Assembly: GCA_964016885.1 (NCBI GenBank)
Contig: OZ024747.1
Span: 74,090,001-74,154,000, forward strand
Direction of reading: 5' to 3'
Length of the DNA stretch: 64,000 nucleotides
Source: Eledone cirrhosa
Taxonomy: Eukaryota
Below are positions 15,264-53,799 of this stretch, in pieces (within the stretch, counting starts at the first letter, position 1; every line of letters starts with the position of its first letter). A model generated the notes under the pieces. It was not told the origin of the DNA, ran no database searches, and saw only the letters and a list, made by a program, of their open reading frames with translations. Both the position numbers and the translations under genes were made by a program.

Positions 15264-15833
15264 GTCGCATCACCGCCACCACTGCCTCGGTATCGACATC
15301 ACCACCACCACTGTCTCAGTATCGCCAACGCCGCCAGTCTCTGCTGGCTACCACTTCCACATTATAGAATTCCTACTACTAACAAAGAGGAAGGCATCAA
15401 AATATATAGATAGACTCAAAAGAAAAAAGAAAAAACAAACAACAAAAGCAGCACAGCAACAACAGTAAAAAACGAGAAAAACAGAGAAAAACAAAAACAA
15501 AAAAAGAAACCCCAAAAACGTAAAGAAAATAAGAATGAAGAGAGAAGCAGGCGGACGGACAGAGAAGAGGGGGGAAAAAGTAAAACTTAAAAAACAAAAA
15601 CTAAGTCAGACATTCGAATACTACATTACAATGAAACTTATGCTTATTCATTTTTGGGGCCCTTTCTGCCCGTGTGTTTGTTTGTTTATGTGTGTCCGTA
15701 TACAGCGTGGTGATAATGCCACACAAGGGCCAAGTGGGATGGCGGATCCACAGATGGCTATGTAAACATACATTCGCCAATCCTCGATAAGAGTGTTTAA
15801 ATATCGAACATAAACAGTTCGAATAACGGTGAA

Positions 15834-35814: not shown

Positions 35815-35930
35815 TGTGTATTATATTGATAAGATCAGAAAATTAATTCCCGACGCGAATGTTTCGCTTAAACAAATTTACAATGCTGATGAAACGTGAT
35901 CATTGTGGCGAAACATTGCAGATAAGTAAA
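35815..35930 (+). pseudogene. pogo/Tigger DDE transposase remnant
   Basis: IDKIRKLIPDANVSLKQIYNADET*SLWR resembles the pogo motif QIYNADETGLFW. Confidence 0.5.
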
Positions 35931-38595: not shown

Positions 38596-38885
38596 ATAAC
38601 TTTCATGCTACATATATATGAAGTATTTTCGTTAAATTTGATTTACTTCCGCCACAGATTTGTCACACGTTATTGAACGTGATCTAGCTAAAACTATCGT
38701 CTCTCAACATGCCAAGTCTTTGCGTACGTGCTAGAAACGAGTTTCTCGGCATATACCTATATAACTTTCCCTTTTATCGTTTCCCAATAAAAATGTGCTG
38801 AAAATATTCAACAAAGTGATTGTTTGGGAATGTATACTGTGAGATATAAGATGCTTCTAGGAAAATCATATATATATATATATAC

Positions 38886-38981
<96 letters not shown>

Positions 38982-39282
38982 TGAAACAAAATGAAAACGA
39001 AATTTCATTTCTCACTCTTAGTATGGCACTTACTTAAATGTAAGTATGCATGTATACGTACATACATATATGTATACAGACGTACAGTAGCATGCACATA
39101 TATATATATATACATATATACATACATATACATACAGGTACACATACATATATGCACGTATCAGTTTAGCGGCGCTTATTATAACGTCGCTTTGTTCGTT
39201 TGTAAACAAACTGAACAGCCTGAATTTATGCCATACGGTGTTAAGGCAACCACGTCACCTTTTTGTTCAACACTGACACAGG

Positions 39283-39327
39283 AACGATGTACTAGTTTCA
39301 AGCTTGTTAGCTATCATCAGCACCGTT
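39283..39327 (-). ncRNA. Type I hammerhead ribozyme (inverted arm)
   Basis: The reverse complement reads AACGGTG-CTGATGA-TAGCTAACAAGCTT-GAAA-CTAG-TA-CATCGTT. Confidence 0.9.
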
Positions 39328-39699
39328 TACCCATCTGCCAGATAGTTGAACGTTCGAAAGTATATACTTTCCTTATGAAAATTAACGGCTGAGCAGCCTA
39401 ATTTGCATATTGAGTGAGTTAAATCGGTCAGGCATACCGAAAACGATAAATTGAAACAAAATGAAAACGAAATTTCATTTCTCACTCTTAGTATGGCACT
39501 TACTTAAATGTAAGTATGCATGTATACGTACATACATATATGTATACAGACGTACAGTAGCATGCACATATATATATATATCGTTTTCGGTATGCCTGAC
39601 CGATTTAACTTACTCAATATGCAAATTAGGCTGCTCAGCCGTTAATTTTCATAAGGAAAGTATATACTTTCGAACGTTCAACTATCTGGCAGATGGGTA

Positions 39700-39744
39700 A
39701 ACGGTGCTGATGATAGCTAACAAGCTTGAAACTAGTACATCGTT
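39700..39744 (+). ncRNA. Type I hammerhead ribozyme, first of 11 (others start at 40170, 40642, 41114, 41586, 42058, 42532, 43004, 43478, 43950, 44422)
   Basis: Stem I AACGGTG/CATCGTT, core CTGATGA, stem II AGCT-AACA-AGCT, GAAA, palindromic stem III ACTAGT, GUA cleavage triplet (cut after 39737). Confidence 0.92.
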
Positions 39745-42700
39745 CCTGTGTCAGTGTTGAACAAAAAGGTGACGTGGTTGCCTTAACACCGTATGGCATA
39801 AATTCAGTCTGTTCAGTTTGTTTACAAACGAACAAAACGACGTTATAATAAGCGCCGCTAAACTGAAACGTGCATATATGTATGTGTACCTGTATGCATA
39901 TGTATGTATATATGTATATATATATATATATGCATGCTACTGTACGTCTGTATACATATATGTATGTACGTATACATGCATACTTACATTTAAATAAGTG
40001 CCATACTAAGAGTGAGAAATGAAATTTCGTTTTCATTTTGTTTCAATTTATCGTTTTCGGTATGCCTGACCGATTTAACTCACTCAATATGCAAATTAGG
40101 CTGCTCAGCCGTTAATTTTCATAAGGAAAGTATATACTTTCGAACGTTCAACTATCTGGCAGATGGGTAAACGGTGCTGATGATAGCTAACAAGCTTGAA
40201 ACTAGTACATCGTTCCTGTGTCAGTGTTGAACAAAAAGGTGACGTGGTTGCCTTAACACCGTATGGCATAAATTCAGGCTGTTCAGTTTGTTTACAAACG
40301 AACAAAGCGACGTTATAATAAGCGCCGCTAAACTGATACGTGCATATATGTATGTGTACCTGTATGCATATGTATGTATATATGTATATATATATATATA
40401 TGTGCATGCTACTGTACGTCTGTATACATATATGTATGTACGTATACATGCATACTTACATTTAAGTAAGTGCCATACTAAGAGTGAGAAATGAAATTTC
40501 GTTTTCATTTTGTTTCAATTTATCGTTTTCGGTATGCCTGACCGATTTAACTCACTCAATATGCAAATTAGGCTGCTCAGCCGTTAATTTTCATAAGGAA
40601 AGTATATACTTTCGAACGTTCAACTATCTGGTAGATGGGTAAACGGTGCTGATGATAGCTAACAAGCTTGAAACTAGTACATCGTTCCTGTGTCAGTGTT
40701 GAACAAAAAGGTGACGTGGTTGCCTTAACACCGTATGGCATAAATTCAGGCTGTTCAGTTTGTTTACAAACGAACAAAGCGACGTTATAATAAGCGCCGC
40801 TAAACTGATACGTGCATATATGTATGTGTACCTGTATGCATATGTATGTATATATGTATATATATATATATATGTGCATGCTACTGTACGTCTGTATACA
40901 TATATGTATGTACGTATACATGCATACTTACATTTAAGTAAGTGCCATACTAAGAGTGAGAAATGAAATTTCGTTTTCATTTTGTTTCAATTTATCATTT
41001 TCGGTATGCCTGACCGATTTAACTCACTCAATATGCAAATTAGGCTGCTCAGCCGTTAATTTTCATAAGGAAAGTATATACTTTCGAACGTTCAACTATC
41101 TGGCAGATGGGTAAACGGTGCTGATGATAGCTAACAAGCTTGAAACTAGTACATCGTTCCTGTGTCAGTGTTGAACAAAAAGGTGACGTGGTTGCCTTAA
41201 CACCGTATGGCATAAATTCAGGCTGTTCAGTTTGTTTACAAACGAACAAAGCGACGTTATAATAAGCGCCGCTAAACTGATACGTGCATATATGTATGTG
41301 TACCTGTATGCATATGTATGTATATATGTATATATATATATATATGTGCATGCTACTGTACGTCTGTATACATATATGTATGTACGTATACATGCATACT
41401 TACATTTAAGTAAGTGCCATACTAAGAGTGAGAAATGAAATTTCGTTTTCATTTTGTTTCAATTTATCGTTTTCGGTATGCCTGACCGATTTAACTCACT
41501 CAATATGCAAATTAGGCTGCTCAGCCGTTAATTTTCATAAGGAAAGTATATACTTTCGAACGTTCAACTATCTGGCAGATGGGTAAACGGTGCTGATGAT
41601 AGCTAACAAGCTTGAAACTAGTACATCGTTCCTGTGTCAGTGTTGAACAAAAAGGTGACGTGGTTGCCTTAACACCGTATGGCATAAATTCAGGCTGTTC
41701 AGTTTGTTTACAAACGAACAAAGCGACGTTATAATAAGCGCCGCTAAACTGATACGTGCATATATGTATGTGTACCTGTATGCATATGTATGTATATATG
41801 TATATATATATATATATATGCATGCTACTGTACGTCTGTATACATATATGTATGTACGTATACATGCATACTTACATTTAAGTAAGTGCCATACTAAGAG
41901 TGAGAAATGAAATTTCGTTTTCATTTTGTTTCAATTTATCGTTTTCGGTATGCCTGACCGATTTAACTCACTCAATATGCAAATTAGGCTGCTCAGCCGT
42001 TAATTTTCATAAGGAAAGTATATACTTTCGAACGTTCAACTATCTGGCAGATGGGTAAACGGTGCTGATGATAGCTAACAAGCTTGAAACTAGTACATCG
42101 TTCCTGTGTCAGTGTTGAACAAAAAGGTGACGTGGTTGCCTTAACACCGTTTGGCATAAATTCAGGCTGTTCAGTTTGTTTACAAACGAACAAAGCGACG
42201 TTATAATAAGCGCCGCTAAACTGATACGTGCATATATGTATGTGTACCTGTATGCATATGTATGTATATATGTATATATATATATATATATATGCATGCT
42301 ACTGTACGTCTGTATACATATATGTATGTACGTATACATGCATACTTACATTTAAGTAAGTGCCATACTAAGAGTGAGAAATGAAATTTCGTTTTCATTT
42401 TGTTTCAATTTATCGTTTTCGGTATGCCTGACCGATTTAACTCACTCAATATGCAAATTAGGCTGCTCAGCCGTTAATTTTCATAAGGAAAGTATATACT
42501 TTCGAACGTTCAACTATCTGGCAGATGGGTAAACGGTGCTGATGATAGCTAACAAGCTTGAAACTAGTACATCGTTCCTGTGTCAGTGTTGAACAAAAAG
42601 GTGACGAGGTTGCCTTAACACCGTATGGCATAAATTCAGGCTGTTCAGTTTGTTTATAAACGAACAAAGCGACGTTATAATAAGCGCCGCTAAACTGATA

Positions 42701-44706
42701 CGTGCATATATGTATGTGTACCTGTATGCATATGTATGTATATATGTATATATATATATATATGTGCATGCTACTGTACGTCTGTATACATATATGTATG
42801 TACGTATACATGCATACTTACATTTAAGTAAGTGCCATACTAAGAGTGAGAAATGAAATTTCGTTTTCATTTTGTTTCAATTTATCGTTTTCGGTATGCC
42901 TGACCGATTTAACTCACTCAATATGCAAATTAGGCTGCTCAGCCGTTAATTTTCATAAGGAAAGTATATACTTTCGAACGTTCAACTATCTGGCAGATGG
43001 GTAAACGGTGCTGATGATAGCTAACAAGCTTGAAACTAGTACATCGTTCCTGTGTCAGTGTTGAACAAAAAGGTGACGTGGTTGCCTTAACACCGTATGG
43101 CATAAATTCAGGCTGTTCAGTTTGTTTACAAACGAACAAAGCGACGTTATAATAAGCGCCGCTAAACTGATACGTGCATATATGTATGTGTACCTGTATG
43201 CATATGTATGTATATATGTGTATATATATATATATATGTGCATGCTACTGTACGTCTGTATACATATATGTATGTACGTATACATGCATACTTACATTTA
43301 AGTAAGTGCCATACTAAGAGTGAGAAATGAAATTTCGTTTTCATTTTGTTTCAATTTATCGTTTTCGGTATGCCTGACCGATTTAACTCACTCAATATGC
43401 AAATTAGGCTGCTCAGCCGTTAATTTTCATAAGGAAAGTATATACTTTCGAACGTTCAACTATCTGGCAGATGGGTAAACGGTGCTGATGATAGCTAACA
43501 AGCTTGAAACTAGTACATCGTTCCTGTGTCAGTGTTGAACAAAAAGGTGACGTGGTTGCCTTAACACCGTATGGCATAAATTCAGGCTGTTCAGTTTGTT
43601 TACAAACGAACAAAGCGACGTTATAATAAGCGCCGCTAAACTGATACGTGCATATATGTATGTGTACCTGTATGCATATGTATGTATATATGTATATATA
43701 TATATATATATGCATGCTACTGTACGTCTGTATACATATATGTATGTACGTATACATGCATACTTACATTTAAGTAAGTGCCATACTAAGAGTGAGAAAT
43801 GAAATTTCGTTTTCATTTTGTTTCAATTTATCGTTTTCGGTATGCCTGACCGATTTAACTCACTCAATATGCAAATTAGGCTGCTCAGCCGTTAATTTTC
43901 ATAAGGAAAGTATATACTTTCGAACGTTCAACTATCTGGCAGATGGGTAAACGGTGCTGATGATAGCTAACAAGCTTGAAACTAGTACATCGTTCCTGTG
44001 TCAGTGTTGAACAAAAAGGTGACGTGGTTGCCTTAACACCGTTTGGCATAAATTCAGGCTGTTCAGTTTGTTTACAAACGAACAAAGCGACGTTATAATA
44101 AGCGCCGCTAAACTGATACGTGCATATATGTATGTGTACCTGTATGCATATGTATGTATATATGTATATATATATATATATATGCATGCTACTGTACGTC
44201 TGTATACATATATGTATGTACGTATACATGCATACTTACATTTAAGTAAGTGCCATACTAAGAGTGAGAAATGAAATTTCGTTTTCATTTTGTTTCAATT
44301 TATCGTTTTCGGTATGCCTGACCGATTTAACTCACTCAATATGCAAATTAGGCTGCTCAGCCGTTAATTTTCATAAGGAAAGTATATACTTTCGAACGTT
44401 CAACTATCTGGCAGATGGGTAAACGGTGCTGATGATAGCTAACAAGCTTGAAACTAGTACATCGTTCCTGTGTCAGTGTTGAACAAAAAGGTGACGAGGT
44501 TGCCTTAACACCGTATGGCATAAATTCAGGCTGTTCAGTTTGTTTATAAACGAACAAAGCGACGTTATAATAAGCGCCGCTAAACTGATACGTGCATATA
44601 TGTATGTGTACCTGTATGCATATGTATGTATATATGTATATATATATATATATGTGCATGCTACTGTACGTCTGTATACATATATGTATGTACGTATACA
44701 TGCATA

Positions 44707-44773
<67 letters not shown>

Positions 44774-44776
<3 letters not shown>

Positions 44777-45226
44777 AAGTTATATTTAAAATTGTTGGGT
44801 TACAACTAGTAAATATTTATAACTGATATAAAAGCACTCGACAAATATTTGGAGTATATTTACAATATTAAATAAATGGAAAACTATATTTATAAAACCA
44901 TATTTATTTCATTATATATATTTCGGGGATATCATATTAACAATATGCTATGCCTTCATCAGACAAAATACAATATAAACAGTTTTATAGATAAATATAT
45001 TCGACATACCGTAATAAACATCAACTTCATTTGAAGAGGACTGCTAGCGTAAACCTCTTCAAATGAAGTTGATGTTTATTACGGTATGTCGAATATATTT
45101 ATCTATAAAACTGTTTATATTGTATTTTGTCTGATGAAGGCATAGCATATTGTTAATATGATATCCCCGAAATATATATAATGAAATAAATATGGTTTTA
45201 TAAATATAGTTTTCCATTTATTTAAT

Positions 45227-45232
<6 letters not shown>
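44774..45232. mobile_element. Fold-back element (family P3), 179-bp arms, one hammerhead per arm
   Basis: 44861-45039 is the reverse complement of 45054-45232 with a 14-nt spacer, plus an extra tail at 44774-44860. Flanked by (TA)n. Confidence 0.88.
45123..45188 (+). ncRNA. Type I hammerhead ribozyme (mirror copy on - strand at 44905-44970)
   Basis: TATTTTGT-CTGATGA-AGGCATAGCATATTGTTAATATGATATCCCC-GAAA-TATATA-TA-ATGAAATA. Stem I pairs with two G-U. Confidence 0.8.
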
Positions 45233-45287
<55 letters not shown>

Positions 45288-51362: not shown

Positions 51363-51928
51363 TTGAACATTGTGGTAGGCAAAATCTAACACACAATACC
51401 AAAGTAACGAAAGAACAGGTTGAGAAAAAATACACCTGCACAAATCAAACGTTATACATTTAAACTGTTTCTATGAATCCGAAATCAAATATCAGACTTA
51501 CGTAACTGGCAAGCTCGTTGTATTCATGATCGAACAGAGGATTCATTTCATCAACAGGATTTCGTTCTATCAAAGAACGGGGCGAAATACTAAATGTTGC
51601 AACTAACATCAGAGAATCGAACATTTAGTTGTCATGTGTTATTTCCAACAAGGGAAATAACCCCCGGTTTTTGGCGGGTCATTCAAAGTGTTAGACAAAG
51701 GCAATATTATAATTTCCGCTAACATTCAGAATAAGCTCTCGACCAGATGTTATTAAACAAACACAAATAATTAACCAATCAACAGAATTGTCTAATTAAA
51801 TTAATTAGTTAATTATTAAATCTAGGAGAAAATAATATATATATATATATATAACAAGAGCTGGGTGGAAAAATCGGGATATGACGTGATAGAGTCGGAA
51901 AGTACTCTATTACGGAGGTAGGAGCTAG

Positions 51929-52062
51929 ATAACGGAGGAAGTGTGGTAAGGAACCAGATGGACCATAACGCACCAGAGTACTCAATACTTAGGGTAGTAG
52001 AGTGGGTAATAGGAAAAATTTAGCCCCGACGGCAGAGCCCAAGCCGTTTCGGCGGCTATTTC
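51929..52062. mobile_element. P1 copy truncated inside the hammerhead stem
   Basis: P1 tail followed by CCCCGACGGCAGAGCCCAAGCCGTTTCGGCGGCTATTTC. Confidence 0.78.
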
Positions 52063-52490: not shown

Positions 52491-52510
52491 CTGTATATAT
52501 ATATATATAT

Positions 52511-53247
<737 letters not shown>

Positions 53248-53533: not shown

Positions 53534-53730
53534 AAATGTATGACCCCGACGGAGGAGCTCAAGCCGTTTCGACGGCTATTTCTGGACAGAAATAGTCCAG
53601 AAATAGCCGTAGAAACGGCTTGAGCTCTGCTGTCGGGATCATACGTTTTCCTATTACCCACTCTACTACCCTAAGTATTGAGTACTGTGGTGCGTTATGT
53701 TCCATTTGATTCCTTACCACAACTCCTTCG

Positions 53731-53733
<3 letters not shown>
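53531..53733. mobile_element. P1 fold-back copy in (TA)n
   Basis: Palindrome about GGAC-AGAAATA-GTCC plus the P1 tail, in opposite orientation to the 5561 copy. Confidence 0.8.

Positions 53734-53799
<66 letters not shown>

Follow-up and report, generated by a model that had tools for sequence, protein, structure and literature searches.

Inverted copies of a tandem hammerhead-bearing repeat in Eledone cirrhosa end at two fixed sites, as a rule one on each arm

Two inverted insertions beside (TA)n tracts

The window, by which we mean the whole 64,000-nt stretch of Eledone cirrhosa DNA analysed here, contains two insertions of one tandemly repeated, non-coding family with a unit length of 420–484 nt. 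Each insertion consists of two arms in inverted orientation, with the ribozyme-sense 3' ends pointing outward and (TA)n adjoining all four ends. One arm ends at a unit position that we denote P1 and the other at a position P2, and the segment between the two positions is referred to as the tail. The two loci comprise the following features.

38868..38978, no strand: left (TA)n target tract of locus 1, with two CATGTG interruptions
38976..39581, minus strand: short arm of locus 1, subfamily A, 606 nt (~1.3 units), with its sense 3' end at P2 and the tail included
38976..39040, minus strand: tail of locus 1, P1 to P2, 64 nt; a predicted hairpin ends 8–12 nt before P2
39283..39328, minus strand: minimal type I hammerhead motif of the short arm of locus 1, predicted cut after 39290
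39576..39581, no strand: inversion junction of locus 1, a 6-nt TA overlap; the plus arm begins at about P2+1
39576..44710, plus strand: long arm of locus 1, 10.9 tandem 472-nt units, 3' end at P1, no tail
Within the long arm, plus strand: 11 hammerhead motifs of locus 1, predicted cuts after 39737, 40207 and so on to 44459
44711..44773, no strand: right (TA)32 tract of locus 1
52492..52513, no strand: left (TA)10 tract of locus 2
52511..52984, minus strand: arm of locus 2 with the P2 end, subfamily B, 474 nt (1.1 units)
52511..52573, minus strand: tail of locus 2, within the P2-ending arm
52779..52824, minus strand: hammerhead of locus 2; its stem I differs from that of locus 1 by compensatory changes
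52983..53139, plus strand: arm of locus 2 with the P1 end, 157 nt, no hammerhead; it overlaps the other arm by 2 nt
53138..53210, no strand: right (TA)36 tract of locus 2

Direct reading and alignment agreed on the inverted two-arm architecture at both loci and on the termini beside (TA)n (38976 and 52511 on the left, 44710 and 53139 on the right) that a sequence-only reading of the window had proposed. Both left ends begin with ATAAA, as that reading had it, but the spacer from there to AAAATGAAA, which it gave as one motif for both loci, is 7 nt long in locus 1 but 5 nt in locus 2; the right ends read CATACTTA at both loci. Upon alignment, P1 and P2 were found to lie 64 nt apart on the locus 1 type of unit and 61 nt apart on the locus 2 type, within the ~60–65 nt estimated earlier, and the internal inversion points were likewise found to differ (39576–39581 vs. 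52983–52984). Comparison of arms and flanks rules out that one locus is a segmental duplicate of the other: the arms of the two loci are 78% identical, their left flanks have no sequence in common, and the sole common part of their right flanks is a dispersed 184-nt repeat ~500 nt away, in opposite orientation. Target-site duplications cannot be read inside the (TA)n flanks, and in the short-read data examined no read or contig bridged the inversion junction of locus 2.

All 13 units in the window carry a predicted hammerhead with a 6–7-bp stem I, a conserved core, a stem II and a palindromic stem III, and its stem I shows compensatory changes between the two loci; the unit had no match in Rfam at the gathering score. 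No open reading frame of at least 150 aa overlaps either locus, and the unit, being non-coding, lacks the RT and GIY-YIG frame of an autonomous Penelope-like element (PLE). Subfamilies A and B have units that are 81–83% identical, while subfamily C (L177:3238-5001 (-), L042 and L313) has a 467-nt unit of ~66% identity, a 76-nt tail and homologous end sites. With its short non-coding tandem unit and a predicted type I hammerhead in each, the family fits the animal non-LTR retrozymes, which are likewise described as non-coding tandem units of a few hundred nt with one type I hammerhead each, low GC and thousands of copies, and for which mobilisation by PLEs has been proposed (Cervera and de la Pena 2020, PMC7229834; Li, Clavereau and Pollet 2026, bioRxiv 10.64898/2026.07.22.740005). 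The hammerhead of the present family differs in being of the minimal PLE type. The 5' ends of arms fell at the predicted hammerhead cut in 5 of 134 cases against 5.4 expected, which is compatible with cleavage or with none.

Within the locus 1 array, units 6 and 10 and units 7 and 11 have private variants in common (41938–44710), and this 4-unit period suggests that a block was duplicated, either in the source or once inserted, rather than that one monomer circle was copied repeatedly; unit 1 of the array has six private substitutions. Directly after locus 1 lies a TA-bounded, near-perfect palindrome of 384 nt (44855–45238, 97%), probably another two-armed element. Near locus 2, a second dispersed repeat (51925–52062 and 53540–53740) forms a fold-back structure (87% over 139 nt). 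The unit's internal (TA)n tract has itself been a target of later insertions that split arms (L005, L033 and L206), and in L005 the sequence inside the tract resembles this fold-back repeat.

One of each end site per inverted copy

We examined the ends of further copies in 210 stretches from one contig, merged into 171 regions (813 kb) and taken from among the matches listed for the hammerhead 18-mer and for the P2–TA and P1–TA junction patterns. Genome-wide (3.0 Gb), the ribozyme 18-mer has 28,868 matches, and the exact junction motifs occur 3,717 times for P2–TA and 2,711 times for P1–TA. The sequence-only reading had asked for a tabulation of termini across copies, with random end points as the outcome that would speak against it; instead, within regions containing a hammerhead-anchored stretch, 74 of 93 arm ends lay at P1 or P2, with 4 of the 93 at the unit's internal TA tract, among the matches listed. 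Three ways of calling ends were dropped: k-mer blocks fell short of P1, alignment with cheap gaps extended into the flanking TA and gave false P1/P1 pairs, and motif pairing was defeated by the near-palindromic sequence of the tail motif. The final counts come from a landmark walk along the arms.

This walk sorted 114 inverted entries, among the matches listed, into 83 with mixed ends, one P2/P2, no P1/P1 and 30 others, in which an end was unresolved, truncated, at a region edge or in the unit's TA tract, or the call was spurious. After removal of one false call (L146) and three duplicates, and with one mixed copy (L001) left uncounted, independent inverted copies with both ends resolved carried one P1 and one P2 end in 79 of 80 cases among the matches listed (binomial p ~1e-22 against free choice). 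An alignment-free check on coordinates, with 100 P2 and 89 P1 places among the matches listed as input, yielded 16 P1/P2 divergent pairs within 3 kb and neither a P1/P1 nor a P2/P2 pair. Even a copy of the distant subfamily C (L313, 66% identical) has one end of each kind. Family-wide, there are two fixed end sites, and nearly every resolved inverted copy has one of each. Single-arm copies use either site (31 ending at P1 and 49 at P2, among the matches listed). In a sample partly chosen by TA junctions, TA stood on both flanks of 78 of 82 inverted copies and at the 3' side of 78 of 80 single arms.

There are three copies with like ends (L149, L271 and L286). The only P2/P2 copy, L149:3385-4005, runs at both ends into (TC)n and not (TA)n, and L271 has identical flanks on its two sides, as a later duplication would give. 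A P1/P1 reading of L173 and of the second element of L192 was abandoned, as their ends proved on inspection to lie inside the unit's TA tract.

A match to (TA)n does not suffice to choose these sites. In the subfamily B unit the match at P1 is 5 nt long and that at P2 3 nt, and matches of 6–14 nt are present at other unit positions; one internal 6-nt match had 13 ends against 7,591 read-throughs genome-wide (0.17%), compared with 3,717 ends against 4,562 read-throughs at P2 (45%), so that the longer match is used ~270-fold less. Hence, the suggestion of two AT-rich microhomology priming sites stood as regards two fixed sites on the RNA, one per side, and was not supported, as stated, as regards microhomology being what defines them. 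In all three subfamilies the tail carries a predicted hairpin that ends 8–12 nt before P2, and inspection by eye showed a U-A to C-G change in that of subfamily C; the hairpin is weak, with folding z between -0.3 and -3.4.

A common source for the two arms, and a coding family with the same end rule

The arms of a copy were found to be related to each other in sequence and independent in length. They copied overlapping bases in 71 of 79 inverted copies among the matches listed, and in the same 79 copies their lengths were uncorrelated (rho 0.16, p 0.15). An arm's own partner was the closest sampled arm in 21 of 41 cases (1.6 by chance), median divergence was 4.3% from the own partner vs. 8.7%, and none of the 56 typed copies among the matches listed mixed subfamilies A and B. 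Judged by these sequence comparisons, the two arms of one copy share one source; gene conversion, or subfamilies active at different times, could also produce their similarity or add to it. In 32 of 79 copies (among the matches listed) the P2 arm was longer than the P1 arm by over 61 nt, and the length limit expected of two simultaneous polymerases on one RNA is therefore absent.

Among the matches listed, 92 junctions between arms comprised 38 with an overlap of 1–8 nt, 15 with at least 11 nt, 7 blunt and 32 with extra bases, the overlaps of 1–2 nt being within chance expectation. Fold-backs, in which the junction lies at the same unit position for both arms, made up 8 of 67, compared to 1.1 expected. 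For P1 arms and P2 arms alike, 2 of 67 began at the other end site, with 2.7 expected for a P1 arm at P2+1. The plus arm of locus 1, which starts from about P2+1, could be read as twin priming in the style of L1; this reading does not hold generally, given the chance-level 2 of 67 and the frequent overlap of arms. Twin or dual priming in L1 (Meyer et al. 2010, PMC2837659) resembles the present copies in having two cDNAs from the two strands of a cut and a head-to-head inversion. In L1, the second site is described as variable and the arms as free of overlap, with an internal deletion, whereas here the sites are fixed and overlap is the rule.

A GIY-YIG fragment in a flank of a sampled copy led to a young coding family, Q (L297:1435-5277 (-), L298 and L299), with a ~4.3-kb tandem unit and a frame of 1,270–1,281 aa that contains RT motifs, a CxxC linker and GIY-YIG. 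Pfam and PDB returned nothing for the whole frame, and the RT assignment is motif-based. In Q, the hammerhead precedes the frame by ~150 nt, while the tail falls within the beginning of the frame; this tail is not homologous to the tail of the retrozyme-like family, and the hairpin is absent from it by MFE. The arms of Q end beside (TA)n at two sites 60 nt apart (Q1 and Q2), and inverted copies had mixed ends in 19 of 21 cases and the tail on both arms in 2 of 21; these are corrected figures, the automatic count having collapsed three loci with TA-only flanks. The own partner arm was the best match in 12 of 15 (1.1 by chance). Tails thus measure 60–64 nt in two unrelated families, and 76 nt in subfamily C.

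Family Q, as far as its sequence tells, follows the same end rule and, its tail being unrelated, serves as an example of that rule rather than as an established partner of the retrozyme-like family. The earlier suggestion of an autonomous PLE with a similar hammerhead and tail found no support, since none of 100 GIY-YIG-anchored stretches (150 of 10,596 candidates scored) held an element with the family's hammerhead or tail. Copies of the family near GIY-YIG matches (L314 by reading, L313 by coordinates) were considered as partners and set aside as separate insertions.

How the two ends may arise

Inverted copies with a one-sided tail in 79 of 80 cases, (TA)n targets and the same rule in a coding PLE family bear out the earlier proposal of a PLE-type footprint. 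For endonuclease-bearing PLEs this footprint has been described qualitatively (Craig et al. 2021, PMC8557442; PMC3846280): partial tandems, an adjacent inverted and 5'-truncated copy, a tail at one end, (TA)n targets and a hammerhead upstream of the tail are common to those elements and the present family. Unlike the PLEs described in PMC8557442, the family has no reading frame and has a tail of 61–64 nt, compared to 30–40 nt there, and the one-sided tail, termed "often" or "optional" in these papers (PMC8557442, PMC3846280), is by count near-obligate in the two-armed copies here. The Poseidon PLE of Anolis in vitro (Frangieh et al. 2024, PMC11167929) is similar in several respects: it nicks and extends both strands, it has two adjacent RT start sites that bracket the tail downstream of the hammerhead, and its targets are AT-rich. 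It differs in that its start sites are reported as not homologous to the target, and no start-site difference between strands was reported in bulk. What is added here to a qualitatively known footprint and two start sites in vitro is the near-strict pairing; the literature searched contained no count of tail pairing and no common-source test for arms, although the supplement of PMC8557442 may already list related families.

We infer priming in this family from the geometry of its ends. As the sense 3' ends point outward, synthesis of each cDNA would start from the adjoining flank and proceed inward. The explanation that we favour, and to which we give an even chance, is that a Penelope-type RT/GIY-YIG enzyme cuts both (TA)n strands and primes twice on RNA from one source, the RNA read twice being probably the same molecule. 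A double-strand cut in the (TA)n target would provide two free 3' ends, one priming at P1 and the other at P2 on the one-source RNA; protein binding to the tail RNA would fix these sites, while the 3–5 nt of TA pairing would only set the register. The inward cDNAs would stop at random and then be joined at their 3' ends, such that either could serve as primer for the second strand of its partner. Once primed, a site is no longer available, and one RNA read twice would thus explain the one-each rule most simply. PLE proteins are not known to carry an RNase H, so the RNA would survive for a second reading by strand displacement, and a multimeric or circular template would be needed wherever an arm exceeds one unit. 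The three copies with like ends, the absent length limit, the weak hairpin and the bulk result on strands in the anole system count against this explanation.

Instead, a dimer, either an asymmetric one of protein or one formed by hammerheads, might hold together two sibling RNAs of one locus, one of them being primed at P1 and one at P2. Such dual priming would yield overlapping arms of independent lengths without strand displacement, and it gains from the palindromic stem III, which suits dimer formation (PMC4209133), and from the predicted dimeric state of the anole PLE protein (PMC11167929). We consider it unlikely, as an extra asymmetry is required to force one site each and as Naiad PLEs are described as having inverted copies and one-sided tails yet no canonical hammerheads (PMC8557442). 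Strict asymmetry would follow at once if both arms began at the same site and the endonuclease resolved the intermediate at a constant offset of ~60 nt, so that only one side kept the tail, a reading given in PMC8557442 that agrees with the similar tail lengths in two unrelated families. Yet two RT start sites that match genomic tail ends were mapped in vitro (PMC11167929), single-arm copies end at either site, and P1, P2, Q1 and Q2 each lie at a short TA match, which makes a single start site with processing quite unlikely.

Snap-back, whether by a folded cDNA that serves as its own template or by self-priming of an antisense RNA (proposed in PMC3846280), would account for the common source of the arms and for the excess of fold-back junctions. 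It requires one arm to be contained in the other, yet 31 of 79 copies here and 7 of 19 in family Q lack such containment, and it gives no cause for stopping exactly at the other site; these points refute it as a general route and leave it improbable overall, with the minority of palindromic junctions possibly arising by it. That microhomology with (TA)n alone chooses the sites appears very improbable: P1, P2, Q1 and Q2 do all lie at 3–5-nt TA matches, and the few ends at other TA-like sites (13 genome-wide and the 4 of 93 at the internal tract) fit it, but longer matches are used far less, free pairing would be expected, and the anole PLE starts at non-homologous sites (PMC11167929). Least probable of all is an artefact of assembly or a rearrangement after insertion, through fold-back reads or inverted or segmental duplication. 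The unbridged junction of locus 2 and the identical flanks of L271 would suit it, while the arms within copies differ (median 4.3%) and have different fixed ends, there are ~80 different junctions, raw reads of other samples contain opposite-strand joints within the family, and the window loci are only 78% identical with unrelated adjacent flanks.

The origin of tandem and inverted PLE copies and of their one-sided tails is treated as an open question in the PLE literature cited here (PMC8557442, PMC11167929). The present counts turn a loose description into a rule: each side has its own start site, and a single source supplies both arms. This rule eliminates snap-back and L1-type twin priming as general routes, places a testable constraint on PLE transposition and makes a sharp prediction for the existing in vitro PLE system. 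They also offer direct footprint evidence for insertion of a tandem animal retrozyme by PLE machinery, a link hitherto argued from co-occurrence and pLTR similarity; local tandem growth is favoured in bioRxiv 10.64898/2026.07.22.740005, whereas the arrays here are bounded by PLE-type ends. More tentatively, and with clearly less confidence than in double priming within this family, we suggest that two-armed Penelope insertions, coding or not, may all stem from a single RNA double-primed at two protein-fixed sites ~60 nt apart, one per DNA strand, with each cDNA serving as primer for the second strand of the other; in that case the tail would span the distance between the two active sites of a dimer, and mimicry of this tail element alone would let animal retrozymes spread.

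Elsewhere in the window, an isolated hammerhead-like core at 35886 belongs to another family, and a cluster of LINE-type RT frames occupies 225–33600, including two frames of 1,141 aa at 15801 and 20401.
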